Virus record (IMG/VR): IMGVR_UViG_3300028591_000071
Length of the DNA: 64,000 nucleotides
Origin: a virus
Taxonomy: Duplodnaviria; Caudoviricetes
Direction: 5' to 3' (one strand)
Part shown: positions 2,868-63,801 of the stretch, piece by piece
How the letters are laid out: each line of letters starts with the position of its first letter
Position numbering within the stretch: the first letter of the stretch is position 1
The notes under the pieces: model-generated
The model's input: the letters and a program-made list of their open reading frames with translations, nothing else
Told to the model about the DNA's origin: nothing
The model's database searches: none
Program-made: the position numbers and the translations under genes

Positions 2868-3440
2868 TTATTCAATAACCAAATCGTCATCCGTTTCCCA
2901 ATATAAATATTCAGACATTGCGGAAAAACTCGTTTCAAGTGCACCAATTCTGCCTTTTAATAGTTCAACGTCTCCTTCTACATCACCACTTGCCGAAGTC
3001 GTTCCGAGTTTTGCAACTTCTCCCGGCCCCGTTACGATATAGAAACCTGAAGAATAGGTTGAACCCGATATTTCCTCTTCCCCGAGAACGTTTATAATCT
3101 GTCCGACATTATCCTCGGTTGCGAGGGCTTTTGCTTCGGTGTATGTTGATACAGCGGGAGCCGCGCCATTTGATGAACCGATTTCCTCAAGCGAACCGTC
3201 AATAAGTATCTTGTAAACGGTTACGGCGCTGTCGGCTGATGCAACAACCGACAGAACCTGTCCGACATAGGCAATATCTCCGTACTCACTCGTTCCGTTT
3301 GCATACGACTGAGCGTCTTCGAACGAAGCGAAAACATTTGTTGGGTCTAACGGTATCTGCCTTGACCTTTGGTATGATTTAGGAAGGCTTATTACTGAAA
3401 GAGCCCTCAATTCGTCTTTTGAAAAAGCTTTTGCACCCAT
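2868..3440 (-). CDS. Putative fibre-associated structural protein (190 aa)
   Basis: PLD...Y.GQ.L.V module resembling the N-terminus of the collagen fibre; short coiled coil; AGGAGG upstream. Confidence 0.55.
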   Translation of the reverse strand: MGAKAFSKDELRALSVISLPKSYQRSRQIPLDPTNVFASFEDAQSYANGTSEYGDIAYVGQVLSVVASADSAVTVYKILIDGSLEEIGSSNGAAPAVSTYTEAKALATEDNVGQIINVLGEEEISGSTYSSGFYIVTGPGEVAKLGTTSASGDVEGDVELLKGRIGALETSFSAMSEYLYWETDDDLVIE

Positions 3441-3458
3441 TTTCTACTTCCTCCTATG

Positions 3459-6400
3459 TTAGTTTTTGAATTTTATTTTATATGTGTCAGATGACGGATA
3501 TGGAGATGCAGGGGTGAATGTCCAAACCTTGTATTCGATTGGCTTGTACCCGTTTGCACCAGGAACCATAACTGTCGTTGTGTCAAAGACATCTTCGATA
3601 TTGGCGTTTACTGAAACCTGGAATATCTCTATGTTCGTGAATGCCGTTGAAGGAACTGCAATAACGCACTGTGCCTTTCCTGCGGTGATAGGGAAATCCC
3701 ACTGTGTTCCGGTCGCTGCGGCTGTTGAACCTGTAAGGCTTCTGATGAGAGTAGCGTCAATGCTTCCAGTAGCAACTGCAGTATCAAGAAGCCCGTAGAA
3801 ATACTTTCTGTATCCTGTAACCGTCCTTGATGTCGTGCTGCCCGTCGGCGTCGTTGACTTTCCGTCATAGAAACTATCGGTTATTTCAACCTTGCAGTCC
3901 TCACTGAACGTCTTGACATTTGATGCTGCATAAATCGTGCACTCCTCAAAGTTCTCAGCAGGGGTATATGTCATACCTGTCTGTCTTACCACTATGCTGT
4001 TAGCACCGTCGTTTGCATACATTGCGTCTGCATTTGCAGGGAAGTTCTCATTTACTGATGTACCTGTGATAGATACATTTGTCATTCCCGCTGTATCAGA
4101 CTTGAATCCGTTCACCGTAGGAACAGCCAATGTGTAATCTCCACTCTTTTCTGCAATGTATGACTTTGAATATGTTCCGCTTGTATATGCTCCGTCAACA
4201 CCCTTCTTGTAACCGTTGCTGTATCCAGTTGTCGTTACATTGTAGTTATAATTACTTGTATTTGCGGTTGCACCATTGAAGTAATATATCGTACCCGCTT
4301 CAACAGTTTGGTTGGAACTGATATTGCTTCCGCCCGCGGTCTGTGATAAGTTCAGTGTAGGATTCTTCGAACTAACATTCCAAGCATATGTCGCCGTTGG
4401 AGTAGGCCACGTTACCTTACTGAACAGTTTAACCAATACCTCTTCGATGCTTGTTCCTGCAGGTATAACCTTATTACCGCTTTCGTCGGTCCAACCCGCA
4501 TCAGTCGGCCAAGTGTCGCAGTCATCAGCCAAAGGGCCACCCGCCACGATAATGGAATTACCGAGAACAGATGATTGAGACGCCTGATTAATTGCTGCAA
4601 CCGTATCGGCAGATGTCGCATATTCGGAAAGTGCAGTTTCGAGGGCCGCACTTGTAGTATATCCCGATAGGTCGATATTAACCGACTTTTCAACTACTTC
4701 AAGAGAAGTTCCGTTCAACTTGACATCTTCGATAACATTCTCGTCACCGAGATTCAGGTTATTAACGGTCTCTTCAAGCGTCTCGAGACTTCCGCTAACC
4801 GCAGCGATGTCCCTGTTCATTGCCGCAGCATCTTCAGGATGTTCCTGAATCCAAGCAGCAATCTCTTCAAGTGTATCTAACGCTTCCTGAGCATCTTCAG
4901 GTATAAGTGATTCGGTAAGAGCTGATAATGTGATACTCTTAACCTTTTCCTTATCGAGTGAAATCTCATCGTTTTCTATGATGATACCTTCGCCCTGTGT
5001 GTATGTTCCTGCCAATCCCTGAGGACCCTGAGAACCATCTACACCCTGAGCACCTTCAACACCTTGAGGACCCTGAGAACCTTCGTTTCCTTGTTCTCCC
5101 TGAGGTCCCTGTGTACCTTCATCACCCTGAGGGCCTTGAACACCTTCGTCGCCCTGCGGACCCTGTGCTCCGGTCTCGCCTTGAGGACCTTGGTCACCTA
5201 CAGCACCTTGGCTGCCCTCGACACCCTGAGGTCCTTGAGCACCATCTTCGCCGTTAGTTCCCGCTTCTCCTTGTGGTCCTTGGGCTCCATCTTCACCCTT
5301 TTCGCCTTGAGGTCCCTGTTCTCCGGTTTCACCCTGTGCACCTTCAAGTCCTTGTGGTCCCTGTGCCCCGTCTTCACCGTTGATTCCTGCTTCGCCTTGA
5401 GGACCCTGTGTTCCATCATCACCTTTTTCGCCTTGAGGACCTTGGTCACCTACAGCGCCCTGTGCTCCAGCCTCACCTTGTGGTCCCTGTTCGCCATCGG
5501 TTCCAGCCTCACCTTGAGGACCCTGTGCTCCATCTTCACCGTTGATTCCTGCTTCACCTTGTGGTCCTTGGTCTCCGTCCGTTCCTTTATCTCCCTGAGG
5601 GCCTTGTGCACCGGTTTCACCCTGTGCGCCTACCTCGCCCTGAGGACCTTGTGCTCCATCCTCGCCCTTTTCACCTTGAGGACCCTGAGCACCGTCTTCT
5701 CCGTTTGTTCCTACCTCACCCTGAGGACCTTGAACACCTTCGTCGCCCTGTGGACCCTGAGCACCGTCTTCTCCATTAGCTCCGGCCTCACCTTGCGGTC
5801 CCTGCTCGCCGTTTTCACCTGAAGCACCCTGCGCACCTTCAAGTCCCTGAGGTCCTTGTTCGCCGGTCTCTCCGACGGCACCCTGTGCTCCTTCGATACC
5901 TTGTGGACCCTGTGCTCCCGTTTCACCAACAGCACCTTGACTACCGGCCTCGCCCTGAGGACCCTGTGCACCATCAGCGCCCTTGATGTTTCCGACATTC
6001 TTCCAATCTGAATTCAGGTTGTCCCATACGTAAAGATTGCCACCTACAAGGTAAGCGTCTCCTATGTTTCCGGTTGGATGTTCGTCATAAAGGTCTTCCA
6101 CGGTATTATAAGAACCAAGAATGCTTACTCCCTTTCCGTCTTCACCCTTGGCTCCCTGTGCTCCTTCAAGTCCTTGTGGACCCTGAACGCCTTCGTCACC
6201 CTGAGGGCCTTGCGCTCCCGTATCACCTTGTGGGCCCTGTGCGCCTTCTGCTCCATCTTCACCCTTCTCTCCTTGCGGACCTTGGCTTCCATCAATACCT
6301 GCTTCGCCCTGTGGACCTTGCTCCCCAACGGCACCCTGTGCACCTTCTGCACCTTGAGCACCATCGGTTCCGTCAGTCCCCTTTAATGATTCAAGCCATT

Positions 6401-7985
6401 CTTCTTTGGTCATATAATCAGCCTCACTAATCAACTGAACCTCGAAATCCGTTGACTTGGTAAGAACATCCGTTCCGTCTATTGTCTCTGTGTATTCAGG
6501 AAGATTAAGGTCTCCTTCCGCGGGAACACTTATGATACCGTATGTCCTATCAACATCAGTACCCCATATCTTTGCGGATGGCTTCCATACGAATCTTTCT
6601 CCGTTCTTGTAAAGAACCCTGATATATGTTGCTCCATCGAAATTATGGTTAACGACAAGCCAAGGGAATTGTGTTGGGTCAAATGGTGGCCAAGTATCTC
6701 CATCTTGTTCCGCTTCAACAGGGTTGAGAGTATAATAATCGTTGAGTTCATTGTACCTTGCCTCTGCAAAGTTCCTGTGGTCAACAATCAAAAAATTTCC
6801 TTTCTCTGCTACGCTATCCAAATAAAGGTCATAGGCGGATTTTCCAACCCATCCGTCTTCACCCTTATCTCCTTGCGGTCCTTGCTCGCCATCCGTTCCG
6901 TTTTCTCCGGCGGCTCCCTGAGCACCTTCAACACCTTGTGGGCCCTGAGCACCGTCTTCACCGTTTATTCCGTTCTCTCCTGCCGCACCCTGTGCACCCT
7001 CAGCACCCTGAGGGCCCTGTGCTCCGTCTTCTCCGTTTTGTCCATTTTCTCCTGCAGGACCTTGGGCTCCGTCTGCTCCCGCTGCACCATCTTCTCCCTT
7101 AGGACCTTGGACACCATCTTCACCCTTTTCACCTTGAGGACCCTGAGCACCGTCTTCACCGTTGATTCCTGCTTCTCCCTGTGGGCCCTGAGCCCCATCG
7201 GCTCCATCTTCACCCTTTTCACCAGTAGGACCTTGCACCCCTTCTAAGCCCTGAGGGCCTTGAGCACCTGTTTCGCCAACAGGGCCCTGTGCACCCGGAA
7301 CAGGAATTGCCCCCTGTCCGGCAATTGACGTAATATCAACTCTTATTGGAGAAAGAGAATCATCATTATAATAGAATTCAATAAACGTGTCATTACCTTC
7401 CGTAACAACTGTACCACTCGTGATGAATTGGTCATACTGCCACTGAGAAAGAATATCTTCCAAGCCTGCCGACTCGCCAATTTTTACATTATCATAATAA
7501 AGTTCAATTGAAGTATCAGCACTGTTCGCAACCACAGCAAACTTCTGTGGGTCTGCGTGGTTATATTCCCATGTTGGAACACCATCGACAATTTCGCTTG
7601 CAATGTACTCTGCCCACTTTCCGTCTCTTGTTTCGTCCGAAAGTACAATGGCTTTCTGCCCGACTTTAAATGCTTTGCTTATATTCGCTCCGCGAGTTAA
7701 AAGTCCTACAATGTCATTTGAAAAATCTACAAGTTCCTGATAAGTGTCAGTAACTATCGTGCTTGCAATTGTCCAATGATTTTTTCCAACCCTTGAAGCA
7801 CCGTTTGAATCGATTGAGAACTTTAATGGATGCCCATCGTTCAAAACGGTCACTTCCATTCCGTCATAGGAATAGGTGAAATATTCAAATGTTGACAATC
7901 CTGACACATTAGCCAAAGTTGTTTGTCTAATGTCAAGCGGCTGTTTTTTCTGCAAATTTAATTGCTCGTTTATGCTAATTGCCAT
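3459..7985 (-). CDS. Collagen-like tail or head fibre protein (1508 aa)
   Basis: Three Gly-X-Y tracts separated by globular inserts; [10 protein letters not shown] coiled segment; beta-rich C-terminal domains. Confidence 0.85.
5006..5984 (-). repeat. Long Gly-X-Y collagen repeat (about 108 triplets)
   Basis: Uninterrupted GAQGPQGE-type units with 9-nt DNA periodicity. Confidence 0.95.
6131..6382 (-). repeat. Gly-X-Y collagen repeat, middle tract
   Basis: GTDGTDGAQ...GEDGKG. Confidence 0.9.
6836..7299 (-). repeat. Gly-X-Y collagen repeat, N-proximal tract
   Basis: GAQGPVGET...[11 protein letters not shown]. Confidence 0.9.
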
Positions 7986-7994: not shown

Positions 7995-10643
7995 TTATTT
8001 TGTAAGTGTTATTTCAAGAGATTTTACTGAACCTTCAGAGAAGTATCCGTGAGCGGCAGGATACTCTTCGTCTATTCTGAATTCATACCAAACAGTATAA
8101 TCAGCGCCGCTTATCTTAATGTCCTGTGCCTTGGTGAGAGATACAGGTTGCAATCCTCCCCTGAGTCCGCTATATTCAGAAAGGTCTAACCGAGAAGGTG
8201 CAACTATAATCGGCTCCCTTGCGGCACTCTCCAAATATGCGTCAAACTCTTCATCCGTATCATTGTCATAATGGTCGAAGTATGTTGGGTCTGCAGGAAT
8301 TTCTATTGGGAATTTTCCATCTGCAGGGAAATCAGGAAACGTGCTGAGAGCAAGAACATCTTGGCTGTCGTTGGTTATTGCGGTGATAACATTGTGGTTC
8401 AATGCTCCCCAATAGATTGTTTTAACGACAGGCTTTTCAACATATTCTCCGTAAACAGTCACCGCACTTGCAGGCATTGGCGTTCCTTCTTCAACAGAGC
8501 CATCATCCCACTTGAACTCATATGTAACTCCACTGATTTCAATCTCAGCAGGAAGTTCAGGATAAATGATTTCTTCCTTGTAGAGTGTTTCGCCCGATTC
8601 AATTATACCGGCCGGTGCCGCAGCACTGCTTCTCCTCATAAATGAAAGTTTGAACGGCTTAGGGATGATAGTCACCTCTACGGTAACCTCGTCCTCTTCA
8701 ACAACCATTCCTTCGGTATAAGCCGAACCGTTAACGGTCCAATCTACCTGATAACCTGGGTCTTCAATGTCAACCTTGGTTTCAGGGCTTGCTGATGCTA
8801 TAATGTCTTCTATGATATCAGCAATAGGCGTTCCGTAATCGTAGGTCGTTGCACTCTCCGCAGTGTCTCCACTTATAACGGGAGTTACACTTGACTTTTT
8901 GGTCTTGATGATAGGAACCACCGTTACATCTTCGTCAGGCATTGTGTCTGCACTCGTGATTGTTGTTCCGTTCATCTGCCATTCTTCGATGTACTCATAT
9001 GGGCCAACCTCTATTGCCCCTTCCAGTGCCTCGAGGATGTTCTCACCATAGTTGATTGTTACACTGCTTGCACCTGAAACTGTTATAATATGCTCATTTG
9101 GAACAATTTCCGCCGTGTATTGAACATCGTTTGCAGGGACCGTTGCGCCCACAGGTACATTGGTTTCAATATGATGTCCGACCATCTCATTTGGATAGTT
9201 GGCCTCAATGTAATCTTCAATTGCTGATGCAATGTCTGACTTATATTCCAAAAGAAGCACAAATGGTTCTTTGCCCGCGAGATTAATCGTTACATTGTAT
9301 TTATTGATATCCGCGTCAATGGTTATTCCACTTGCAGGAACAGTTTCAACGCTTCCCGTGTAAGAATATCCTTCAGGAATCAGTGTGCTGATTTCCGTTC
9401 CATATGCTACCGAGCCGCTGTATATCACATCATTATTGTGCGTGATGACAACAGGATATGAATTGACGCTCGTCTCACAAGTTGCTTCCACATTATAATA
9501 AGGCATCGTATAATTACCTGAAACACCGTCAAGTTCAGGGTTGAATACCCAATCAGTTACCGTGTAGCCTTCTTTCTCGTGTTTTGCTCTTGGCTCCACA
9601 TTTGCGCCATAACTATAAGTTTCGGACTGTCCGTCCTGAACCCCATCGACATAGTAAGACAACGTGTATTGGTTTGCCGTCTTGATGGTATAGAAGTTTA
9701 CATCGCTTGCAGGCATCTTATTATCAACCACTTCTGTATCGGCACTCCACTGTGTGAACGAATATCCTGATTCCACAGGAACATCCTTTGATGGAATTGT
9801 CTGTCCGTACTTTAAGGTGGAGGATTCAACCAAGTCGTCATTGATGAAATAACTTACAGTATATGAATTTGCTGAAAGAACAGCCTTTAATACGAGGTTG
9901 TTGATGTCAGGCATATTCACATAGTAAGGTGTCCACCCACAAATAGTGTACCCCTCCTTGCTGTCCGCAGCAGGATATGCTATAGGGTCATCATATTCAA
10001 AGGTTGCCGTTGAAGCCTCCCCGCTTATGTTGAACGTTACATTATATGATTTCTTGGTAAATGTTCCACTAAAAACATAATCCTGCTTAACTGTTGAAGG
10101 AATAGAAGGCTCCCATCCGCTGAAAGTGTATCCCGTCCTTGAAGATGAAGGGATATTGGTGATTTTCTTTCCCCAATCAATGGTCTGCGTATAATCGTCT
10201 AAAACCTCATCGTTAACCTTGAAACTCACGTTGAATTTCTTGATTGTATTCGTTCCGTAAAGGGTGAGGTTTGATGCAGGCATCGTTGTGTGCGTATTTC
10301 CGCTAGCATCCTTCCATCCACTGAAGTCATAACCTTCTTTGCTGCCATCGTACTCAGGGATTGGTGCACCTTCCTCAAGATTATAACTCTTTTTAAGGGA
10401 ACCATCGACATAAAACTTCAACGAATATGTCTTAGTGGAAGAACTCTCGCTTCCGCCGCCGTCTCCGCCGCCTCCATTTACGTTAACCGTCATCGGCTTC
10501 ATATATTCTTCCACGGGAAGGTCACACAAGTCAAGAACATGAGCACCCCAATGGTACATCTCTTCATATCTGTTATCCTCTTCAAGAGTAATACCGCTTT
10601 CTGGGCGTATTGCCATTTCTCGTGGGTCGTTCAAATATGACAT
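7995..10643 (-). CDS. Structural protein with tandem Listeria-Bacteroides (InlB B-repeat/Flg_new-like) repeats (882 aa)
   Basis: About 60-aa repeats with KEGYDFSGW, RTGYTFSGW, KEGYTICGW, ESGYSFTQW, KEGYTVTDW cores and MP..(N/D)(L/V) ends. Confidence 0.8.
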   Translation of the reverse strand: MSYLNDPREMAIRPESGITLEEDNRYEEMYHWGAHVLDLCDLPVEEYMKPMTVNVNGGGGDGGGSESSSTKTYSLKFYVDGSLKKSYNLEEGAPIPEYDGSKEGYDFSGWKDASGNTHTTMPASNLTLYGTNTIKKFNVSFKVNDEVLDDYTQTIDWGKKITNIPSSSRTGYTFSGWEPSIPSTVKQDYVFSGTFTKKSYNVTFNISGEASTATFEYDDPIAYPAADSKEGYTICGWTPYYVNMPDINNLVLKAVLSANSYTVSYFINDDLVESSTLKYGQTIPSKDVPVESGYSFTQWSADTEVVDNKMPASDVNFYTIKTANQYTLSYYVDGVQDGQSETYSYGANVEPRAKHEKEGYTVTDWVFNPELDGVSGNYTMPYYNVEATCETSVNSYPVVITHNNDVIYSGSVAYGTEISTLIPEGYSYTGSVETVPASGITIDADINKYNVTINLAGKEPFVLLLEYKSDIASAIEDYIEANYPNEMVGHHIETNVPVGATVPANDVQYTAEIVPNEHIITVSGASSVTINYGENILEALEGAIEVGPYEYIEEWQMNGTTITSADTMPDEDVTVVPIIKTKKSSVTPVISGDTAESATTYDYGTPIADIIEDIIASASPETKVDIEDPGYQVDWTVNGSAYTEGMVVEEDEVTVEVTIIPKPFKLSFMRRSSAAAPAGIIESGETLYKEEIIYPELPAEIEISGVTYEFKWDDGSVEEGTPMPASAVTVYGEYVEKPVVKTIYWGALNHNVITAITNDSQDVLALSTFPDFPADGKFPIEIPADPTYFDHYDNDTDEEFDAYLESAAREPIIVAPSRLDLSEYSGLRGGLQPVSLTKAQDIKISGADYTVWYEFRIDEEYPAAHGYFSEGSVKSLEITLTK

Positions 10644-50649: not shown

Positions 50650-53600
50650 CACTGTTCAAATTTATATTTATAAGTTGCTTTTTGAGTATTCTTTATCAGA
50701 ATCTCATAACTACCTTCTCCAAATATCCAACAATGCAAGACTAAATCGAATCTGTTGCTGTTAATTGATAGCGGATTGCTGCCAGATAACGGTATCTCTA
50801 AGAGTCCCGTGGTCAGACTGCTTGCGGTAACCTCTCTGGAGACCATATTTCCATTGATTGTATACCAGAACGAGACAGAACCCGTAATATTTTTAACTTC
50901 AATCATTGGCAATGATGTAAGTTTGATATATTCAATATTTTTGCCATATTCAGCCGACGCCACAACGAACTCGTCATTGCTGTCATTTATTTTTTCTATC
51001 TCAACCGATGGCGAGATGAAATCGCTCTGTTCGCCGTCATCACCTTCACCGCCTTCACCAGGGTGGCCTCCTCTCTGATAAATAACCAATGTTGTGGTAC
51101 CGGTAGGCGGACCTTGCCACGTTAATTCTATCTTACGTTCTCTTTCTTCCTCGTTTTCGTTCGGATAAACTGTTATAGATACCGGTACGTATTGTGTACC
51201 ATCCGCATCAGTACTTCCGCCACCGTAAGTTATATCAAAGAAATTAGACTCCGATGTAGGACTTATAGTATAGTCTGTCGCAGCGCTGAACACTTTGGCG
51301 TAAATCTCCACGGTTTCACCCGAAGAACCAACCGTAACCATTGTTATAGCATTTTCATCGCTCGGATTATCAATAAATAACGCAAGGGCATACCTGCCTT
51401 CAAGCGTGTTAGATGCAACTGGGTCTAAATAAATTCTATATACATTTCCATTGGCATTCCCGTTTTCGTCTTCAAAATGTTGAACACCTATTACGATGAA
51501 TCGGTCTGCGCCCCTGGTGGACATAGGTTCTCCAGGGACAATAGCACTACTACGGTCTAAACGACTCTTTATCGCCTTGGACATGGACCATGTTCCCCCA
51601 CTGACAACCGTCGACAATATCTTTATGGACTTCCTGAATCCAATCTTTGGTTTCCCCTTCTCCGGTGGCATGTTCATCGTAGAAGCCGATGCTTCAGCCA
51701 AATACCTTTCCAAATCTCCTATTCTAATGCGGTTTTGTTTCGACACTTTTATCGCATGAATCTTGTAGTCGGATTCGCCGTTATCACTATCACCATCGTC
51801 GGTTTCTTCAGTCCAAGGAAGATATGCTTTTATTTTTCTTCCTTCATCGGCTATCTGTATAATAATATCACCACCGTAAGTATCATAAATAGCCCCCTCT
51901 TCAAAGTATCCTAATACATAAAGCATCTTAGGACTATTAAAGAGCGATATTCGCGGATATGTCGGCACATACTTGTAATTATCCTCATAGAAAATGTCAT
52001 CACTCCTACCTTCAAACGGGACAAGATAATATGTGATATTATCATATCCACCCTCGCTGTCACCCCACAATCTTATTTCATCATTTCCCACCAATTGATA
52101 ATACATGGTATTATGGAACGCACTTCCCATTTTTAGTTCGACCGATACCGCTTCTGCCTTATATGCATTGTAATTCTCATATAACGTATCAGTGTCCAAA
52201 ATCTTGTATGCCAGTATATCGTTACCATGAACATAATAAGGGAAACCTTCTGTTATCCCAAATGACGGGTCATCAATGCGTTCATCAGTAAAGCCCGATA
52301 CTTGTTTGCTCCTATTTGCTGTTAAACCCATATAATCAGGCAGAGGGCCGACATTTATTTGTGTCTTCCCCTCATTGTCGCTATTATCGGACCTGTTATA
52401 GATTCCGGTTATATAGGAATCCCCTGCAAAACATTGTTTGAAAGTGACTCCATTCATTATGTCAGCCTCAATCTTTTCCCCGCGAATTTCCGATACCGCC
52501 GTAGGCTTTGAAATCCCATCAGTATCTGTAACCATTTCCAACTTGGTATCCATTATTTCGAAATAGTTTACTTTGACTTCGAAATGTTTCTTGATTACAG
52601 GATAATTGATGGTTGGATAAACCACTCCGTTCTCATACAGTCCACCTTCGTCATCATCACCAAACAGGGTTATGCTTCCTCCGCCGGGATTTACATAAGC
52701 AGGCATAACGTTACCATACGGAACAGGTTTAAATATGCATCCATCCCCTTCCCTTAATAACGATGACGAAGCATCCAACGCCTTAGTCATGCCATTCTTG
52801 TTGGTGATAGTAGACGCATAATTTCCACAAACCATGGAATCGTTCACCGTCATGGCATTATAATTATAGATTGGTCTTTCCGGCTTTTCGTTTATTGTTA
52901 ATGTGGCATAATAAGATGCATCATCATCCAAGGAATAACCATCAGGTATTGCAATATCATATTCGGCTGATGATATAGGTTCGTTTTCATTAATATAAAC
53001 ACCATTAACTGATTGTGGGCTTCCAAACAACCATTTCAACCCGTTTATAGGTCGCACGTGACTTGAGAACGGCACTAATTTACCATATGGATATAGGATA
53101 CTCTTCTTTATATCCCAAGCCAAAAAACTACCGGTCGTGTCTTCTAGATAACTCCTCCACCAGTTATCAGGCGTCATCGCATCACCCGCAAGTTCCTTAT
53201 ATTCCGTTGCCAACACCGGGCCCATGGTGAGATTAAGGGTGCTCGTATCCAAAAGGGTAAATGATGATATTTTCAGATAAACGGCATTCCCGCCATTGCA
53301 CCGATAACTGACATAGATGTCATAAGGAGTATTTGCTGAATTCAAATAAAGATATGTATCCCCGCCTTCAACAACCGTAACGGATTTCTCCGCATTACCT
53401 GCGGGGTTTCCTCCTTCGGCCACGGCCACAAGCTTCAGGTCACTGATTTCAGTTTCTTCATCATCTTCAGGGATATTAATTTTAACATCGGTTCCAAGTA
53501 TGTATCCACCTTCAAAAATGCTGCCGCCACCCCTGCTGGTATTCTGCCAAATCTTATTGAAATCATACTTTTCGAACGACCCTCCAATTACTCCGGCTCC

Positions 53601-56600: not shown

Positions 56601-57296
56601 ACCCATTCCTTCGTTCCCCCAAAACGGCTGTACATACACGGTCTTGTCCTGGGTGAATATTTGGCTCAGATTAGTGTATGATGTTCCCGTCTTGAACATA
56701 TTCGGATTCTCGAACTGTTCCACGGTATAACCCTTGTAGATAAAGTCCCTCGGCCTTTGTGAAAGGATTCCACAATCGGACAGGTCAAGGTCCATGTGTA
56801 TCGTATGGGTTCCCGTAGGAACACCGCAAATCATATAGTCGCCCGCATTGTTTGTTCTTGTGGTATATTTGTAATACTTCTCAAATACCTCCATGATAAC
56901 GTCGTTATCGAGAAGATATCTTTTATTCGGAAACGTACCGACAATCTGATGGCAGTCACCGACCTTCTCATCCGGAAGAAGATTATATCTTACCCCATCC
57001 GAGCCCCTGCTGACGCTTGACGAATAGGAGTAAATTTTTTGCATCTCCTCGCTGTCAACGGAATCGGCACTGATGAATATGCTTATCTTGGCATTCGGTA
57101 CGCCAAATCCGCCGTTCGCCTGCACCCTTCCCGCAACGACGCCGTAATTGGAATTATGAAGACGATACACATCCGAACTTGTCAGTTTCATTGACAATAT
57201 ATCGAATGTGTCATAATCCTGTTCAAGGTTAACGCTTACGTAGGTATCATTACCTATCGTCGTCTTTATCCTATATGACTTGCTGTTCTCCGACAT
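50649..57296 (-). CDS. Very large baseplate-associated protein (2215 aa) with a BACON-like domain near the C-terminus
   Basis: N-terminal GVVAGRV...GVPNAKI...TNNAGDY beta-sandwich; ITVYPNE...R...I.L......LVIYQ.G BACON-like pattern. Confidence 0.65.
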   Translation of the reverse strand: MSENSKSYRIKTTIGNDTYVSVNLEQDYDTFDILSMKLTSSDVYRLHNSNYGVVAGRVQANGGFGVPNAKISIFISADSVDSEEMQKIYSYSSSVSRGSDGVRYNLLPDEKVGDCHQIVGTFPNKRYLLDNDVIMEVFEKYYKYTTRTNNAGDYMICGVPTGTHTIHMDLDLSDCGILSQRPRDFIYKGYTVEQFENPNMFKTGTSYTNLSQIFTQDKTVYVQPFWGNEGMGETIGITRADIDVAYKFEPTCVFMGCIAGDNASNGISKKCIPTPSMGNMDELVTGKGTIEMIRKTYGGSVEEFQVKGTELIDGNGIWCYQIPMNLDYMITDEYGNMVPTDNPDKGIPTRTRVRFRISLQDMELNTENFFRPKVLVPHNPQNLDGVDHEDYDYEFGTYTKDESFRDLFWNNVYTVKSYIPRFQKRKVGGWKEDKFSGIKHVQNFGGNNPMPYNNIRIRLPFMFKVICLLVKAFIKVTGVVNTVISAFGNFLAGLGEIDIAGGILRALPNYVLNKLGKSKLITWHPFKKQYRKALTLKMNVIDEGLCPDLENWYFAPMFLKNLWTTSDPPKGLEPYNLLKQTLTGITTDDDKESIDDQNQDTDDKATCLTIRTDYLISCIEMNLAQEYKVINFDFYNDWINGLIYVPRFVRYMRKKRKFLGITVARAKIKGCMDDTKTFSKSRRYTQMCSMGFERQRVGNYNTYSKVTTSLWGDKEIVKSNNLHKKRGLTQQTIFKKNGGICHEKETIYGHHVYYFKPCEWTNNTSPLHRKINLFATDIVLLGSLNNCDLYGIPQAFKHLVGSSYIMPTNLALTNMEESGPLYSYGDKGTICSTGNQTTEKTELSELEKPVRVIPISGDTALYNELKFFSGASENYDTQYDDPSDTIAMTESAGIAWNYTGPGQGKIDKNKLYYPGGHFLGLSCVNSQTNIKSCINLERICELGVSMSQRREEVRDVNENDGDTKMEYTYIAPTGFISGEEIIDDDFRKMFATMNKNRLIADKVNPDNGYKVYDFQHSNPINFNGEFTKYAGVSTPYNQKITSVKEESNWLSKFGILPGNTRDDYDENETANTKTRTIEFPSIDYYMFRFGLTYDDVKKLKERHVRQFGKDKNGIMYLPQYENSFYFYFGLRDGSTALDEFNKQFFSECETSTLSQRQPSIYVSVDDFSICDGTSLVVPYVRNMEPPLIINIDGERHIYEDENDIEGFTLSIGQHKIIVTDANGSEATLEFSVGAGVIGGSFEKYDFNKIWQNTSRGGGSIFEGGYILGTDVKINIPEDDEETEISDLKLVAVAEGGNPAGNAEKSVTVVEGGDTYLYLNSANTPYDIYVSYRCNGGNAVYLKISSFTLLDTSTLNLTMGPVLATEYKELAGDAMTPDNWWRSYLEDTTGSFLAWDIKKSILYPYGKLVPFSSHVRPINGLKWLFGSPQSVNGVYINENEPISSAEYDIAIPDGYSLDDDASYYATLTINEKPERPIYNYNAMTVNDSMVCGNYASTITNKNGMTKALDASSSLLREGDGCIFKPVPYGNVMPAYVNPGGGSITLFGDDDEGGLYENGVVYPTINYPVIKKHFEVKVNYFEIMDTKLEMVTDTDGISKPTAVSEIRGEKIEADIMNGVTFKQCFAGDSYITGIYNRSDNSDNEGKTQINVGPLPDYMGLTANRSKQVSGFTDERIDDPSFGITEGFPYYVHGNDILAYKILDTDTLYENYNAYKAEAVSVELKMGSAFHNTMYYQLVGNDEIRLWGDSEGGYDNITYYLVPFEGRSDDIFYEDNYKYVPTYPRISLFNSPKMLYVLGYFEEGAIYDTYGGDIIIQIADEGRKIKAYLPWTEETDDGDSDNGESDYKIHAIKVSKQNRIRIGDLERYLAEASASTMNMPPEKGKPKIGFRKSIKILSTVVSGGTWSMSKAIKSRLDRSSAIVPGEPMSTRGADRFIVIGVQHFEDENGNANGNVYRIYLDPVASNTLEGRYALALFIDNPSDENAITMVTVGSSGETVEIYAKVFSAATDYTISPTSESNFFDITYGGGSTDADGTQYVPVSITVYPNENEEERERKIELTWQGPPTGTTTLVIYQRGGHPGEGGEGDDGEQSDFISPSVEIEKINDSNDEFVVASAEYGKNIEYIKLTSLPMIEVKNITGSVSFWYTINGNMVSREVTASSLTTGLLEIPLSGSNPLSINSNRFDLVLHCWIFGEGSYEILIKNTQKATYKYKFEQ

Positions 57297-57531
57297 TCTT
57301 ATTCAACCTGAATATTTTATCTAAAACGATGTGCTCGCCCCTTACCGCTTTTACAATGACATAAACAACCATAAACGGTATAACCGGTATTAACATCAGA
57401 CATATGAAGAGATTTTCAATCTTTGCTAAGACGCTTCCTCTTATATTCGTCTTCTTGTTCTTCGGCAGATTGTCCCCGTATTTCTTATGTAAGTAATCTA
57501 TCTGTTGATTTACCTTGCAAGCACACGCCAT
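57271..57531 (-). CDS. Small membrane protein with an N-terminal CxC (MACACK)
   Basis: Hydrophobic LFICLMLIPVIPFMVVYVIV; starts 1 nt after the gp6-like stop. Confidence 0.7.
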   Translation of the reverse strand: MACACKVNQQIDYLHKKYGDNLPKNKKTNIRGSVLAKIENLFICLMLIPVIPFMVVYVIVKAVRGEHIVLDKIFRLNKNVGEQQVI

Positions 57532-57532
57532 A

Positions 57533-59401
57533 TTATCTTTCCTTTATCCTTACTATAATGTCCGTTCCCGGATTCTTGATTTCAACCATAGTATCGCCAT
57601 CGTTATATATCACGCCATCCGTCACTTCCAAATCCAATATCTCTTCGCCCTCATCATTGATTGCAATAGGCTGCGACGGGGATGTTTGCGAATATCCGTC
57701 ACCCGCACCGTTCTTAGGGGATATCTCGATGCCAATCAAGTTTATGACACCGTCAACCTTTGATACTTCCTTTTCAAGGTCTCCGACATATATCTCTTCG
57801 CCCATCATATGGTCATTGATGTCGAAATATGTACGAACGGTTTTTATGATGTTCTTGACAACATCAGACTTATTGTAATTCTTGTCTATGATGGCGTCAA
57901 CCTTCACCCCGACATTGATTATCCGGCCGGCTTTTATCTCAACGAAATCATTAATCATCCTATACCTTTCAAGATATCTCTCGATATTCTTTATGAGTGT
58001 TATAGGAAGCAGGTCGCTGAGTTTCCCCTCGTTGTCAAGCCCAAGAAGATAGACTGCAATCTTGTTATTTTCTTCTGCAACGCCAACCCTGAACGGGGTT
58101 CCATATCTCGGAGGCATATTCAGAATCCTGTCAACATAATCCTTGACCGTGACACACCTTTCCTGTGCGGCATTATGGTACTTAATCAAATATCTCAACT
58201 CCGCGTTTGACGGCATATCCTTTCCTGAAACGGACGGGGTTGTATTAATGACACTTATTGCGTGTCTTTCGCCCCTATACTCAACGTTCAATTGTGAAAT
58301 CCTGCTTATGGCCCCCGCGGCAACGTTGCTTGACGCACCGCCGCCTACCCTGTAAAGAACATATACGGTACTGTTGGCATTAGGAAGGACACCAAGTGCA
58401 TTGTTGTTGAGAATCCTCGTTATTTGCCACTTTGAGAAATCCGACATCCCGTCCCCGATATTGACGTTTCCAACACCGGAGCCGAAAATTATCTTCAAAT
58501 AGCCATTGTCAGTGTATTCCGTAATGAATTTGTGCGAAACAGGCTCCCATTTACCCTTCGTTACGCAATATATCGGCTTTCCTGATGACGAGTAATAATA
58601 ACGCTTGGCTATATTTGTTTTCTCGTCAATATCATCAGTCCATCTGTCGGGCTGTGCAAGGTTGTCAACTTCGAAAAACCTTGTGATAAGTCCCTCGCAA
58701 ACAATCTCTCTGTTGTCATAGAACTGTCCATATGAAGGAACATTGTCTGTTGACTTACCCTCAGCAATAAGGACTGATTCGACGTTCATTACATTTTCAG
58801 CCGGAAGGATAATCTCCATAAATGGCTTTATGTCCTCAGGTGAAAGGCTCTGTCTGTATATCCTCGTGTCTCCCGCAACGACAACGGCAAGTTTGGATAC
58901 GGTATATCCCGTTATTACGCCATTGGTGTTAACATTTGGAACTATGGTCCTGTCGCTGACGCCATCATCGTTGAACTGAGACTTGAAGTCCACATCGTAG
59001 AGCAATTCGAACTGCTGTGATGCGGAACCAACCTTCGTTCCCCTCTTCACTATCGGCGCTTCTTCCCAATTAGGGTACTGCCCGTTTGCCGGCAACTGAC
59101 AAGAAAACCTTACCTCGGCCATTGAACCCTTCGGCCCCGGTATTTTCACTCCGTTGTTCCTTGCAATGTTATAGAGTGATGCACGTTCATTTGCGCTGTC
59201 AATATTCGTTTCCTGATAAACCCTGTCAATATGATACGAAAGGTCATCGGCAACCGCAGCATTGATTCCTATAAGCCACGCTGCAACTGAAGCGTCATCG
59301 TATGTTACATTGAATTCAGGAAAATACTTCTTTGAATATTCCACCAACGCCCTTCTGTAATCGGCGTATGTCCTGTTTAAATATGATATACCCTTTTCCA
59401 T
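57533..59401 (-). CDS. Baseplate wedge subunit (T4 gp6/baseplate J-like)
   Basis: YLNRTY, IARNNG.K, IIFGSG, YRVGGG..SNV..G.I, AQERCVT.KDY motifs. Confidence 0.85.
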   Translation of the reverse strand: MEKGISYLNRTYADYRRALVEYSKKYFPEFNVTYDDASVAAWLIGINAAVADDLSYHIDRVYQETNIDSANERASLYNIARNNGVKIPGPKGSMAEVRFSCQLPANGQYPNWEEAPIVKRGTKVGSASQQFELLYDVDFKSQFNDDGVSDRTIVPNVNTNGVITGYTVSKLAVVVAGDTRIYRQSLSPEDIKPFMEIILPAENVMNVESVLIAEGKSTDNVPSYGQFYDNREIVCEGLITRFFEVDNLAQPDRWTDDIDEKTNIAKRYYYSSSGKPIYCVTKGKWEPVSHKFITEYTDNGYLKIIFGSGVGNVNIGDGMSDFSKWQITRILNNNALGVLPNANSTVYVLYRVGGGASSNVAAGAISRISQLNVEYRGERHAISVINTTPSVSGKDMPSNAELRYLIKYHNAAQERCVTVKDYVDRILNMPPRYGTPFRVGVAEENNKIAVYLLGLDNEGKLSDLLPITLIKNIERYLERYRMINDFVEIKAGRIINVGVKVDAIIDKNYNKSDVVKNIIKTVRTYFDINDHMMGEEIYVGDLEKEVSKVDGVINLIGIEISPKNGAGDGYSQTSPSQPIAINDEGEEILDLEVTDGVIYNDGDTMVEIKNPGTDIIVRIKER

Positions 59402-59404
59402 CTC

Positions 59405-59794
59405 TTAAAGTTTTATTGATACGGTTGTATCTTCTATCTTATTACCGATTGTTACTGAATATGACAGCGAAACGATTACCCCGTTTTCTGAAGTCTCGTC
59501 ACTGTATACCGTTATGTCCTTGAATTTTGCCGCAGGCACATACTTGTTGACCTGTCTTGTTATCTCGCCTTTTATTTCCGCATATGATTCATCATCCTTC
59601 GGACCGAAAATATAGTTGATTAGATTCGTCCCGAAATCAGGATTCCTTACCATCTGTCCCCTTGGCGTAAACACGACGTGTACCACCTGTGACTTTATGC
59701 TTTCCGAATAGGTTTTATTGACATCCATATAGATATTGTCAATGTTGTTATTCGAAAATGGATATTTTATTCCATATGTCTGTCCTTTAACCAT
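59405..59794 (-). CDS. Baseplate protein, gp25/GPW-like (sheath initiator)
   Basis: IKSQV.HVVFTPRGQ.VRNPDFGTNL..YIF.P. Confidence 0.88.
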   Translation of the reverse strand: MVKGQTYGIKYPFSNNNIDNIYMDVNKTYSESIKSQVVHVVFTPRGQMVRNPDFGTNLINYIFGPKDDESYAEIKGEITRQVNKYVPAAKFKDITVYSDETSENGVIVSLSYSVTIGNKIEDTTVSIKL

Positions 59795-59901: not shown

Positions 59902-59904
59902 CCA

Positions 59905-62900
59905 TTAAGTGTACATTCCTTCTTCCTGTTTTTCATATGGAATCTTCAAAATCTTCTCGTCCTTGAAATTATGCTGCAGCCATAATGTCCAAACTCTCTC
60001 TGAAAGGAATCCGAGAATCGAGCATTGCCACTTGAACGCCCTCTCAGGTATGTTCCTGTTTCCCTCATATCTCGGGTATTTTCCCACTTCGAGGTTATAC
60101 TTCACGTGTTCCTCAAGTTCTTTCTGCGAATGGATGCCCGTCATCGTAAGATATCCGTCAAGACACTTGAACAAGAACTCACAGTATCTGTCATAGTCCT
60201 CGGCTTTCATTATGAACCCGTTTGAATAATATAGGTTCGGCCCGTTCTTGATGTATTTGTCGTAGTCTTCCGCATAATCAGGGTAGAACGCCTTTATAGC
60301 CATCTCCAACACATAGAGGTCATCAACGCAGTTTGAGAAAGCATAGCCCTGCTCTACGGTATCAGCGGGTATGACCATCGGCTCTTTCTCTGTAGGTGTC
60401 TTGTGGTCAGGATGATAGAATGGCTCGCAAGTAATCACATCATACTTCTCAAGCGTTTTCTCGATATCAAGTTCCGTAATCCCGCTGAACGGCCTTCTGT
60501 ACTGCATCTGTCCCTTAATCTTCGCATCATGGACATTCTTCCAAATCCAATATGTTCCCGTATTCTCGATATAGAGATAATTCTTGTCGGAAATATTATC
60601 TCCCGTATTGTCCTTCGTCCTGCAGACATCTGTTCCGTTTGCCGCCCCAACCTGCAGCGGCGTGATGCAATCGGTGTTGATGAATTCGAAATTCTTCTGC
60701 GCATAACATAGTGAATAAACCTTGATATCGTCTCTCTTCGGCACTATTGCTTCTTCCTTCGGGAGGAGATAACTCATATCGATTCCAAGTTCGTCCTTGA
60801 ATATCTGCACCTTTTCCTTAGTCACCTCGTTGGTTCTGAAGAAACGGGTTTCAATAAGGTTCTTTACGCGGCTTCCGTCCCACAATTGGTCAGGGAAGCC
60901 CCTCCTCATCTTTTCGCAATATTCTCTTGCCGTCTTTGTCGTATAATGCCTGAATGCTGCGATTTGGAAATCAACCGGAGCAAACGGGGACTCTGAATCA
61001 ACGTGAAAACCCACATTGTTGCAACATCTTAGATTGTTCGGCGACGGTGTGTGGGTAAATCCCTTTCCTTCCCACTTTATATCGTCAAGTCCGCCCCTAA
61101 TGATTGAACTGACATGCATATCCTCAGGGAAATTATAGGCAATGCACCTGTCTGCGGGAATAGGGTCGGGAAATCTTACCCACAAGGGCTCATCAGTGAC
61201 ATCGGTCTTCCCGCAGTCTCCGAATGTCATAAGGTTTACGTGAATCATGTCGTAATTTCTGAACTGCGGCATCGCAAGATATTGACCGACGGTCATCTGT
61301 CTTGCAAACGTAAGATATTCATCACCACAGTCAATGAAGAGAATCCAATCGTAATCGTTCTTCATCTCCGCATAACAATCAGTATAACACTTCAACTGAA
61401 TGACCTTCTGCCCGCGAACATCGACGATTTCAACAAAACCATCATTGATGTAATCACCAATGACATCTTCGAAACGTTCCCCGTCAGGGTCGTTATTGTC
61501 ATAAATCCTAATGTGTGTAATTCCAAGATTCCTGTACCACTCCACATAATGGCGGACATATCTGTTCTCATTCTTTCCGATGCAGCAAATGAGTGTCTTA
61601 ATCTCTTCTGCCGTCTTGTATTTCGGTTCCTCGATTCCAAGTTCAGGGAAACGCTGCATAAACCTCTTCCTTTCCTCTACGGCTTCGGTATTCGGGTAAG
61701 ACACCCCTTGTGGATGGAAAAGTGTCACGGTATCATCAATAACCGTCTTAAGCCCCATCTGTTTTGCAAGATAATAATGAGCCTCGCCGCCCCATCCGTA
61801 CTTGTTATCCTCGAAATTTTGGAACGGATAGATACGGTCTGCAATATCCTTCCTTACTAGACGGAACCACCCTTCAGCACCTTCAACCACACGGAAGCCG
61901 TTCGAGCCCTGTTTGAACTGATGTAGATTCTCAGCAATGAATCTCGTCTGTCCCATACATTTTGACCCAGGCTCTGCAGACGGCTCATAAACGCCGACAT
62001 CATTTGACTGTACTACCTTCTGCACCGAATTGATGAGTGCCGTCACATATTTCTCGTCTCGCATCTCAACATCGGAATCAACGGTCATCATCCACTTCGT
62101 TCCGTCTTCCACCATCTTGTTGTAGGTTATAATCCTCTGTCCACCATTGTAAACATTATGTTCCAAAAGGATATGCGGGTCATTGCCGAACTCCCCGAAA
62201 GGATTGCCAAGACCGTTATCAAGGCACTTCGTATCAATAATATATGTATCAAAATAATCCTTGAACCTACGATACCATAATGCAGCGTTCTCGTCATTAC
62301 CATAGTTAAGGATTGCGAATGTCACTTCGGTTTTAAGGTTGCCGAACGCATCATAATCTATGAACTGTTTCCAGAATTCCCAATCGTATCTCTTGTAAGC
62401 GTGGCATCCAAATGGAAGTTTGTTCCCGTTTTGCTTGTATTGAATCGAAGGGGAAACCTCAAGCGAGAATAATGATGCCTCCTGAGGGGTAGGGATATTG
62501 AGAGATTTGTCAAAATTAGCCGCAAAGAATCCGTCATCGGTTCCTTCGTGCGGAAGCCCCTTGCCGAGGAATTTCTTAAGGTATGTTATAATCGAATCGA
62601 TTTTCCTGAGTGAAAAACCTCCGTTGCCAACGAACAGCCCCCTGTCAGAGAACCACTTTACGAAAAACGGCGCACCGATATAATCATATCCTTTGTCGCA
62701 CCACATATCGAGTTCGTCACGGAAAACCCAGCAATCGGTCTGATAAACCAACATATATTCGTAGTCCGCAAACCTCTCGTAAAATTCGACGGAATTCATA
62801 AGCCGTCCATAATCAAGGCGTGATTTGAAATAATCTGCCTTAAATCTCTCAGAAGCCCATGTCTCGCCTAATGGAAATGAATATTCCTGAACATCCATTC

Positions 62901-63801
62901 CTTCAGGGCAAACAAGCCTTATATCATATTTTCCAAGAACGGAACGCAACCTTATCAGCGACTGCCTTTCATCTTCACTCACCTGCGGTTTGTATGCAGG
63001 AACTATTATAACACATTTCTTATTTTCCATATTTTTGCATTTTTTAAATTTGTACGGCTCAACTTCTTTATTAAACATATATTTTTTGTTCTTCGTTATT
63101 TTTACAGGTATCCTTACATATGTTCCATGCCAAAACATCTTAAAATAACTTCCATCCAAGATATTGTCGCCAAGCGGAAGGACTTTCAAATGGCTGTACT
63201 CACTATTGACAACAAATGAGAATATAACTTGGTCAAGTCTGTCAATTCTCGACTCATAAGCAAGTTGCCTCATTAGCGAAAGTGTTTTATCACATATCTC
63301 CCTGTTGGTTTCAGTATTCTTATGAATCATTACATTGCCCTGAAATATACCCAAATATCCATCAACATCATATCCGCTATCCCTTATGAATCCAAGTGTC
63401 TTTTCCGTCTGTCCATGTTTATAGTTTCTGTATTTTTCCCAAACGGACAACTCCTCAGCAAAATTATATCTCTCAGGGTGTATGAACAACCCAATATCAT
63501 ATCCGCCCTTTATAAATGTTTCATATATCTCATCTGTATCTCCACATGGGGTCGTTGTTCCATCTATCCTTATAACAACATCCGTAGAAACATAATCAAA
63601 CGGATTGAACCTAATAGTATAACAAAGGTCCATATTGTCTTCCGGGTGTTCATTTTCAACATAAACAACATTCCAAGTTGAAGATGTTATGCTTTTGTCA
63701 TCCGTCACATAAACATATTCGCAATTTTCGGACGGGTTCTCAACTTCGTGCAAAACCTCATATCCTCCTATGTTGTATGTTAATATACTATATTTTTTCA
63801 T
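59905..63801 (-). CDS. Five-domain glycosyltransferase fusion (DUF616-like, DUF5672-like, GT-A, GT2_4/GT92-like, DUF4422-like)
   Basis: VTDD/RIDG/HPER/DQV; YQTDCWVF..YDYIGAP..VGNGGFSLR..PFGCHA; VDSDV; KNE..Y...Y..LG..IYDNND..FIDCGDEY; PLQVGA..DNTGDNISDKN..Y.E.T..YWIWKN..QYRR..GFLSER. Confidence 0.85.
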   Translation of the reverse strand: MKKYSILTYNIGGYEVLHEVENPSENCEYVYVTDDKSITSSTWNVVYVENEHPEDNMDLCYTIRFNPFDYVSTDVVIRIDGTTTPCGDTDEIYETFIKGGYDIGLFIHPERYNFAEELSVWEKYRNYKHGQTEKTLGFIRDSGYDVDGYLGIFQGNVMIHKNTETNREICDKTLSLMRQLAYESRIDRLDQVIFSFVVNSEYSHLKVLPLGDNILDGSYFKMFWHGTYVRIPVKITKNKKYMFNKEVEPYKFKKCKNMENKKCVIIVPAYKPQVSEDERQSLIRLRSVLGKYDIRLVCPEGMDVQEYSFPLGETWASERFKADYFKSRLDYGRLMNSVEFYERFADYEYMLVYQTDCWVFRDELDMWCDKGYDYIGAPFFVKWFSDRGLFVGNGGFSLRKIDSIITYLKKFLGKGLPHEGTDDGFFAANFDKSLNIPTPQEASLFSLEVSPSIQYKQNGNKLPFGCHAYKRYDWEFWKQFIDYDAFGNLKTEVTFAILNYGNDENAALWYRRFKDYFDTYIIDTKCLDNGLGNPFGEFGNDPHILLEHNVYNGGQRIITYNKMVEDGTKWMMTVDSDVEMRDEKYVTALINSVQKVVQSNDVGVYEPSAEPGSKCMGQTRFIAENLHQFKQGSNGFRVVEGAEGWFRLVRKDIADRIYPFQNFEDNKYGWGGEAHYYLAKQMGLKTVIDDTVTLFHPQGVSYPNTEAVEERKRFMQRFPELGIEEPKYKTAEEIKTLICCIGKNENRYVRHYVEWYRNLGITHIRIYDNNDPDGERFEDVIGDYINDGFVEIVDVRGQKVIQLKCYTDCYAEMKNDYDWILFIDCGDEYLTFARQMTVGQYLAMPQFRNYDMIHVNLMTFGDCGKTDVTDEPLWVRFPDPIPADRCIAYNFPEDMHVSSIIRGGLDDIKWEGKGFTHTPSPNNLRCCNNVGFHVDSESPFAPVDFQIAAFRHYTTKTAREYCEKMRRGFPDQLWDGSRVKNLIETRFFRTNEVTKEKVQIFKDELGIDMSYLLPKEEAIVPKRDDIKVYSLCYAQKNFEFINTDCITPLQVGAANGTDVCRTKDNTGDNISDKNYLYIENTGTYWIWKNVHDAKIKGQMQYRRPFSGITELDIEKTLEKYDVITCEPFYHPDHKTPTEKEPMVIPADTVEQGYAFSNCVDDLYVLEMAIKAFYPDYAEDYDKYIKNGPNLYYSNGFIMKAEDYDRYCEFLFKCLDGYLTMTGIHSQKELEEHVKYNLEVGKYPRYEGNRNIPERAFKWQCSILGFLSERVWTLWLQHNFKDEKILKIPYEKQEEGMYT

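Follow-up and report, generated by a model that had tools for sequence, protein, structure and literature searches.

The four-residue motif S-[AG]-x-T is about fivefold overrepresented in the virion proteins encoded by a 64,000 nucleotide (nt) stretch of viral DNA (IMG/VR record IMGVR_UViG_3300028591_000071; Caudoviricetes), the whole of which is called the window below, whereas the remaining proteins of the window show no excess. The DNA is part of the genome of an uncultured jumbo phage of the myovirus-like type, probably with a Prevotella-type host, and Bacteroidota is the probable host phylum of its clade, the contigs of which originate from rumen metagenomes. In full, the motif would consist of a hydrophobic residue, Ser, Ala or Gly, any residue except Pro, and Thr, and its high density would be kept by selection on the protein sequence. 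Its carriers would be outward-facing virion proteins of a clade of rumen/gut jumbo phages, that is, fibers, adhesin-like repeat proteins, the rim of the baseplate, and the outer sheath. The interpretation that we favor, with a probability of roughly 0.4, is that S-[AG]-x-T is O-glycosylated by the late glycosyltransferase (GT) set of the phage.

Overrepresentation of S-[AG]-x-T in virion proteins

Expected counts were derived from the composition of each protein itself. The 34 open reading frames (ORFs) of the window contain 71 sites versus 15.2 expected. All but one of these sites are found in the 16 virion ORFs (14,526 amino acids (aa); 70 versus 13.3 expected), whereas the 18 non-virion ORFs (5,884 aa) contain a single site versus 1.7 expected. 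These counts agree with a preliminary description of the window, which had placed the motif on outward-facing virion proteins. Its estimate of one site per 900 aa by chance was close to the recomputed value of about one per 1100 aa in virion proteins. The phosphoesterase, primase, Rad50/SbcC-like, sigma factor, gp25, and Baseplate_J ORFs contain no site, in agreement with the absence of the motif that it had reported for the nuclease, the primase, the SbcC protein, the sigma factor, and the core wedge.

When the virion ORFs were shuffled in blocks of 10, 20, or 40 residues, 13.8–14.8 ± 3.7 sites were obtained, with a maximum of 26 in 1000 shuffles (z about 15), and the reversed motif occurs at 1.06 times its expected frequency. 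Composition and local low complexity were rejected as causes of the excess on these grounds. Omission of the collagen and Flg_new proteins still left 51 sites versus 10.7 expected. Since the motif had been picked post hoc, we also scanned all 8000 possible a-b-x-c patterns blindly. SAxT (34 versus 6.1; P 5e-15) and SGxT (36 versus 7.1; P 1e-14) ranked 8th and 9th, and only collagen Gly-x-y patterns ranked higher. Thus, the two forms of the motif are the top non-collagen patterns of the window, and the post-hoc choice did not cause the excess.

A protein-level signal with narrow specificity

The motif is a signal at the level of the protein and not of the DNA. The DNA word AGY-G[GC]-NNN-AC was observed 37 times in the coding frame versus 1–2 times in the other frames. 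The Ser residues of the motif are encoded by both codon families, with about half being of the TCN type, and all four codons are used for Thr. A DNA-level motif was therefore rejected.

The specificity within the virion proteins is enzyme-like. At position 1, Ser is enriched 5.3-fold, compared with 1.6 for Thr, 1.65 for Asn, and 1.25 for Asp. Ala (5.6-fold) and Gly (5.1-fold) dominate position 2, followed by Ser and Leu (2.1-fold each) and all remaining residues at no more than 1.6-fold. At position 4, the enrichment is 5.3-fold for Thr versus 2.1 for Val, 1.9 for Ser, and 1.3 for Ile. The spacing also matters, with values of 1.05 for S[AG]T and 1.5 for S[AG]xxT. Two known sequons were counted in the same proteins. 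The Bacteroidota O-glycosylation motif D-[ST]-[AILVMT], from which the preliminary description had rightly distinguished the new motif, was found 59 times versus 58.8 expected (1.00-fold), and N-x-[ST] 117 times versus 133.7 expected (0.88-fold).

The flanks of 373 deduplicated sites from the whole clade contain almost no information, apart from an approximately twofold enrichment of Leu, Ile, and Phe at −1 and a depletion of Lys and Arg at −1 and +2. Pro at the x position is depleted over these sites and does not occur at all in the virion proteins of the window. Such flanks mark the pattern as a short linear motif rather than a repeat unit.

Distribution of the motif in related phages

With the conserved 286-aa baseplate protein as bait, 21 related IMG/VR loci were gathered from contigs of up to 393 kb. 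All 21 loci are enriched for the motif, by factors between 2.7 and 11.5, and the reversed control is near 1; T[AG]xT reaches 2- to 3.6-fold in some of them. The comparison with composition-preserving shuffles that the preliminary description had proposed showed an enrichment in the window (70 versus the shuffled counts given above), and the relatives are enriched over expectation. For complete gene sets of near-complete genomes, the counts were 157 versus 51.9 (G001), 170 versus 47.8 (G008), 149 versus 42.4 (G012), and 112 versus 57.7 (G003). In the first three of these genomes, SAxT and SGxT occupy ranks 0–4 of the 8000 patterns (all ORFs of at least 400 aa). The excess is concentrated in 5–16 large proteins per near-complete relative genome.

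Sixteen tail, fiber, and capsid proteins of T4 served as a control and contain 11 sites versus 10.0 expected (1.1-fold). The Prevotella megaphage Lak-C1, which has 36 proteins in common with G001, contains 79 versus 54.3 (1.45-fold), and SAxT and SGxT are found at ranks 1010 and 252. The sole significant excess in Lak-C1 (MK250029.1) is that of a 1088-aa ORF at 525680 (with TAG read as Gln; 11 versus 2.6), and its pooled ORFs of at least 600 aa show a mild 1.6-fold value; this phage may thus have the signal in a weak form.

The pattern scans also revealed an excess of other patterns. In ORFs of at least 400 aa of G001, CPxC (20 versus 0.6), CPxH (18 versus 0.4), and HGxF (26 versus 1.9) are in excess, and CPxC is the top pattern in Lak-C1 (12 versus 0.4), which may point to a family of paralogs that carry a metal-binding motif.

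Turnover of sites at a maintained density

Between orthologs with 43–52% identity, 39 of 223 alignable sites are kept, versus about 20 predicted from how well Ser, Ala/Gly, and Thr are conserved in general. In the two most closely related genomes, the Ser and Thr residues of the motif are conserved even less than the average Ser and Thr. Sites are lost by point substitutions within alignable sequence, for example YPYSADTDMV versus YPFKKDTAKL and YPYEKDVRML. Because the positions change, yet every lineage retains a several-fold excess despite this turnover, selection seems to act on the number of sites rather than on their positions.

The clearest contrast is offered by the 882-aa protein of the window, which belongs to the Listeria-Bacteroides (Flg_new) repeat proteins by virtue of its PF09479 repeats. 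Its 52 full-length phage-type orthologs (on contigs of up to 399 kb) contain 314 sites versus 35.6 expected (8.8-fold), and the value for those with only 30–55% identity is 6.6-fold. In contrast, 49 bacterial InlB-B-repeat proteins from Muribaculaceae, Bacteroidaceae, Hungatella, and others contain 57 versus 60.8 (0.94-fold). Inheritance of the motif from the domain consensus was therefore rejected for Flg_new. When 53 phage-type sequences were aligned, motif starts were spread over 52 columns, 10 of which are used in more than 15 sequences and 21 in a single sequence, and no column is universal. The fold itself thus does not need the motif, which the phage lineage overlays at shifting places. 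The earlier proposal of a selected linear signal, as opposed to a structural repeat, is borne out by these bacterial proteins without an excess, by the lack of a flanking consensus, and by the occurrence of the motif in unrelated folds.

Motif-bearing proteins and their place in the virion

The late operon on the minus strand of the window encodes the multi-GT protein, wedge proteins, giant proteins, fibers, and repeat proteins, and a run of very large proteins (2215, 905, 722, 798, 286, 904, and 316 aa) stands out. All genes for which coordinates in the window are given here are on the minus strand. A plus-strand block at 12–21 kb harbors the genes for the Rad50/SbcC-like protein and the sigma factor and further non-virion genes. 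The baseplate genes have no nucleotide or protein match among GenBank phages; the sole GenBank-phage match of the window is the GT92-like stretch of the 1298-aa multi-GT protein (Prevotella Lak megaphages).

The 882-aa Flg_new/InlB B repeat protein (7995-10643; PF09479 in four stretches, E 1.8e-19) contains 11 sites versus 0.96 expected, a number reached by none of 2000 shuffles. The highest density in the window was found in a 316-aa protein of the virion module without an assigned family (38735-39685; 6 versus 0.24), the G003 ortholog of which has 4 sites versus 0.2. Two proteins of the baseplate periphery have 8 sites each, a 904-aa protein (39844-42558; 0.71 expected), most sites of which are not common to the L001 and L003 orthologs, and a 722-aa protein with 21 orthologs (45776-47944; 0.40 expected). 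The 2215-aa giant tail/baseplate protein (50649-57296) has 7 sites versus 1.45 (P 0.0015), and its orthologs in G003 and G008 have 6 versus 1.3 and 9 versus 1.5, respectively. Lower counts were observed for a 905-aa protein (47935-50652; 3 versus 0.52) and a 798-aa protein (43426-45822; 2 versus 0.43; orthologs in G001 and G003 with 3 versus 0.3 and 4 versus 0.5) of the baseplate module. The ORFs 43426-45822 and 45776-47944 overlap by 47 nt, the first possible start codon of both is TTG, and the true start of the downstream ORF probably lies further in.

Among the fibers and repeat proteins, a 2753-aa BspA-type leucine-rich repeat (LRR) protein (27482-35743; PF13306 LRR_5, E 2.9e-53) contains 7 sites versus 2.2 (P 0.0065); related phages carry several smaller paralogs (phrog_9915-like, LRR_5), some of which are encoded outside of the tail module. 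Four sites each are present in a 607-aa Ala/Thr/Ser-rich fiber, probably a coiled coil (25593-27416; 1.5 expected; G003 ortholog 7 versus 1.5), in a 772-aa Ala-rich fiber-like protein (21179-23497; phrog_38190; 1.5 expected), which has a short stretch in common with a 1479-aa fiber of G001 (22 versus 2.8), and in two collagen-like fibers of 917 aa (35958-38711; PF01391 and tail-fiber PHROGs; 0.87 expected) and 1508 aa (3459-7985; PF01391, E 1.8e-86; 1.7 expected). A 190-aa protein (2868-3440; phrog_33094, no assigned function) contains 2 versus 0.32. The counts that the preliminary description had made by hand, for the 882-aa and 316-aa proteins and for the ORFs at 45776, 39844, 3459, 27482, 35958, 47935, and 50649, were all reproduced (11, 6, 8, 8, 4, 7, 4, 3, and 7).

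The collagen-like fibers have an unusual composition, with the Y position of Gly-X-Y being mostly Gln (88 of 188 triplets in the 1508-aa and 22 of 56 in the 917-aa protein), followed by Asp; QGxQ occurs 51 times versus 2.2 expected, and the excess of DGxQ is also extreme. Two of the four sites of the 917-aa fiber (SGMT) are in Gly-x-y register. A link of the motif to collagen (G-x-T)n, as in BclA, was rejected, since the Y position is occupied by Gln and Asp, not Thr, and such a link would cover the two SGMT sites only. In G003 (IMGVR_UViG_3300028833_000001), ORFs of at least 400 aa contain TGxT 307 times versus 38 expected, together with GAxG and GPxG, and these pattern counts suggest that this genome carries very long Gly-x-Thr collagen-like fibers. 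Fibers of that kind are O-glycosylated in the Bacillus protein BclA.

The motif-rich classes in the relatives are coiled-coil fibers, Fib_succ_major proteins, proteins with a family-2 glycoside hydrolase (GH2) plus CHB_HEX_C, BspA-LRR proteins, BACON proteins, and the tail sheath. The six sites of the sheath protein of G001 (phrog_23, E 7e-57) fall without exception within its additional N-terminal domains and leave the conserved core (residues 613–996) free of the motif. Only 0–2 sites are present in conserved replication orthologs, in the gp25, Baseplate_J, and 286-aa proteins of the baseplate, and in most of the large core proteins that are conserved. In the window, the inner-core proteins contain none, that is, the gp25-like wedge protein (59405-59794; PF04965; also 0 in 3 orthologs), the Baseplate_J-like wedge protein (57533-59401; PF04865; 0.26 expected), and the 286-aa bait protein (42560-43420; also 0 in 4 orthologs). 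As judged from protein class, the motif thus appears to be confined to outward-facing virion proteins. In one of the motif-rich proteins, a 2035-aa protein of G001 (52254-58361; L108), CHB_HEX_C/Fn3-associated domains are accompanied by an entire family-2 glycoside hydrolase, and this protein is probably a fiber with a polysaccharide-cutting enzyme.

AlphaFold2 models of the 722-aa protein (16 sequences; mean predicted local distance difference test (pLDDT) 57.9) and of the 316-aa protein (3 sequences; pLDDT 37.6) are too poor to judge exposure. In the former, low-confidence model, 6 of the 8 sites fall where the pLDDT is below 50, and all 8 are situated in loops or where a secondary-structure element begins or ends, one of them directly before a helix.

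Glycosyltransferase genes in the late tail operon

The 1298-aa multi-GT protein (59905-63801), which itself has one motif site, comprises a GT-like region (residues 1–316), DUF5672 (317–467), a GT2-like region (468–741), GT92/GT2_4 (742–842), and DUF4422/GT111 (1033–1227). The preliminary description had regarded it as a five-domain GT. Three GT-type domains (DUF5672, GT92/GT2_4, and DUF4422) were recovered by Pfam, with PF14393 (DUF4422) above its gathering score (132.7 bits, residues 1018–1298), whereas segments 1 and 3 resemble viral GT clusters (TOD1/MUCI70-like and GT2-like, respectively) by language-model features only and are to be taken as a lead.

The gp25 gene lies 110 nt downstream of the multi-GT gene. 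Upstream of it, according to the gene calls of the public contig, are a 270-aa GT92 gene and two others, all with 4-nt overlaps. The GT genes are co-directional with and coupled to the gp25 and Baseplate_J genes and are embedded in the late tail/baseplate operon. Relatives carry the domains of the multi-GT protein split or otherwise recombined, in ORFs of 560, 1081, 864, and 249 aa.

DUF4422 is the only tested GT family that is above cut-off in all five near-complete genomes, and it is also present in G013, G014, and G016. The DUF4422 gene adjoins motif-rich genes in the window, G008, and G014. In Lak-C1, which lacks DUF4422, the motif is nearly absent. The DUF4422 neighborhoods in other IMG/VR contigs are mixed, and the enriched whole contigs among them are distant kin of the same clade. 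A subtraction of gene contents (the core of G001, G003, G008, and G012 minus Lak-C1) left 91 genes, a set too large to single out a reader.

Interpretation of the motif

Since the positions of the sites drift at a maintained number, and since the motif is not in excess in bacterial proteins that share the fold, S-[AG]-x-T is most likely a recognition or acceptor site for a phage-specific factor inside the infected cell. Overall, the chance that some reader of the motif exists seems to us somewhat better than even. The best candidate reader is the late-expressed GT set of the phage, consisting of the GT92 gene and the five-domain GT in the baseplate operon, which would O-glycosylate the Ser (or Thr) and thereby coat the periphery of the tail. 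We infer the attachment, its being a sugar, the acceptor residue, and the priming enzyme. A more elaborate version is somewhat doubtful: S-[AG]-x-T would be a genuine O-glycosylation sequon that is read in the cytoplasm by a phage priming transferase, possibly of the DUF4422/GT111 type or an unrecognized one, and lineage-specific GT sets would then extend the sugar at the primed sites, so that the periphery of the tail would be covered by glycans that vary between lineages.

Several observations weigh against O-glycosylation by the GT set. The multi-GT protein is absent from G012 and has only a weak match in G008, although both genomes are 3.5-fold enriched, so that it was rejected as a required reader. 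Most relatives have no DUF5672, and the same holds for domain 1 and for domain 3; altogether four of the five domains, including the GT92-type part, are missing from some enriched relatives. The GT repertoire varies while the motif stays constant. Of the earlier suggestion that the motif is served by the adjacent GTs, the location of the GT genes in the late tail operon stands, whereas a requirement for the five-domain GT does not. The suggested co-occurrence with GTs holds for DUF4422 in the five near-complete relatives, but the unrelated phage G015 has DUF4422 and reaches only 1.3-fold, which shows that this domain is not sufficient. Moreover, the positive genomes are all related to each other, so that in evolutionary terms the co-occurrence counts as hardly more than one event. 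DUF4422 corresponds to CAZy family GT111, which has been characterized only as a uridine diphosphate (UDP)-galactofuranose transferase acting on a growing glycan and not on a protein (PMC12269835). The gene glf (PF03275) was not found in the five genomes; the host could supply UDP-galactofuranose. None of the five clade genomes contains a bacterial autotransporter heptosyltransferase (TIGR04414-type) at E ≤ 0.01 or a GT41 (Glyco_transf_41) domain. The targets of phage GTs are often DNA or the envelope of the host (PMC12619734). Finally, our reading of a 21-residue fiber repeat in G001 puts the Thr at a core position of the heptad, which could not accommodate a sugar. If this register is right, Ser, and not Thr, would be the acceptor in coiled-coil contexts.

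The last observation would suit an explanation in which the motif is read by nothing, namely a lineage-specific structural habit. S-[AG]-x-T would then be a turn or cap element, with an ST-turn or helix N-cap, a small residue, and a Thr that starts a strand or completes a capping box. ST-turns and capping boxes of the S-x-x-[ET] type are well-known local motifs, and the twofold enrichment of a hydrophobic residue at −1, the position of all eight sites of the low-confidence 722-aa model in loops or strand ends, and the retention of about 17% of the sites in place, roughly twice the background, are in line with such a role. Yet the Flg_new fold has this habit only in phages (8.8-fold versus 0.94-fold in bacteria), and the tail and fiber proteins of T4 (1.1-fold) do not share it. 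Asp, Asn, and Thr are equally good turn or cap formers but are barely enriched at position 1, and the enrichment of Thr at position 4 is not matched by Val and Ile. Despite their opposite backbone preferences, Gly and Ala are used to the same extent, in helical fibers as well as in beta-rich proteins, and the two closest genomes conserve the sites less well than the average Ser or Thr. We therefore consider a purely structural role unlikely.

Everything that argues for a reader applies equally to a reader other than a GT, be it a kinase or another modifying enzyme, a fiber-assembly chaperone, or a docking partner on the particle, the host, or a rumen surface; the GTs would then serve the DNA, the host envelope, or only the collagen fibers. 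In accord with this, no single GT tracks the motif cleanly, the depletion of basic residues at −1 and +2 is compatible with a charge-sensitive reader, and effects of phage GTs on DNA and on the host serotype are known (PMC12619734). On the other hand, neither a kinase nor any other candidate enzyme was found in the window, the GT genes are physically within the tail operon, and DUF4422 is present in all enriched genomes tested. This explanation, too, appears unlikely. Least of all can the excess be credited to an artifact of composition, repeats, domain inheritance, or a DNA-level signal, a possibility that was refuted by the controls and can practically be discarded. Sites within repeat families do exist, in collagen Gly-x-y (SGMT), in CHB_HEX_C-like domains (I-S-A-D-T-I), and in BspA LRR units, and counts in paralogous repeats are not independent. 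But the excess withstands local-block shuffling and the removal of the collagen and Flg_new proteins, the signal is seen in frame and in forward orientation only, the 373 deduplicated sites have no flanking consensus, and bacterial members of the same domain family have no excess.

Comparison with known systems

By analogy, the nearest documented system for O-glycosylation of S-[AG]-x-T by phage GTs is the virion glycosylation of mycobacteriophages. There, phage GTs O-glycosylate the C-termini of capsid and tail-tube subunits; phage-encoded virion glycosylation has so far been documented for a few mycobacteriophages, and without a sequon (Freeman et al., 2023; PMC10527164, as summarized in PMC12619734). 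Common to both are phage GT genes in or beside the structural block and, as the proposed product, a glycan coat on assembled particles. In contrast, the candidate tetrapeptide sites described here are internal and scattered over fibers, adhesin-like proteins, the rim, and the outer sheath, and the capsid and tube proteins were not identified in this work. The present phage is uncultured and available as sequence only.

Among bacterial systems, HMW1C/NGT (GT41) are soluble cytoplasmic enzymes that read N-x-S/T on adhesins, with the Thr/Ser two to three residues downstream. The short sequon on adhesins and the downstream Thr are similar, but no GT41 was found in the phages, N-x-S/T is present at 0.88-fold, and the linkage here would be to oxygen. 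The general O-glycosylation of the Bacteroidota, the probable host phylum, likewise uses a short sequon of three residues on surface proteins. However, its D-[ST]-[AILVMT] is not enriched (1.00-fold), and that system is extracytoplasmic, whereas virions are assembled inside the cytoplasm. The autotransporter heptosyltransferases TibC and Aah hyper-glycosylate many Ser sites of the adhesins TibA and AIDA-I in the cytoplasm, before export or assembly (PMC4358343), which resembles the proposed scheme, but a TIGR04414 homolog was not found in five clade genomes. The N-terminal domain of Klebsiella WbbM (GT111; PMC12269835) has counterparts in the C-terminal domain of the 1298-aa protein and in one gene per relative, all of which match PF14393 above cut-off. 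However, the characterized GT111 extends an O-antigen galactan, and no glf was found in five genomes of the phages.

Implications

A literature search yielded no paper on an S-[AG]-x-T motif. New here are the rumen clade itself, the contrast between phage and bacterial proteins of the same fold, and the dispensability of the large fused GT in combination with a conserved DUF4422. If O-glycosylation of the motif is true, the glycosylation sites would be predictable from sequence via a four-residue acceptor code, and the large, fast-changing GT sets in the tail operons of large phages would be explained. The glycan layer could shape host range, adhesion to plant fibers or mucus, resistance to rumen proteases, and recognition by the immune system of the animal. 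Even without a sugar, the repeated emergence of one motif at ever different positions of dozens of unrelated proteins, which among shared folds is restricted to the phage versions, demands a reader.

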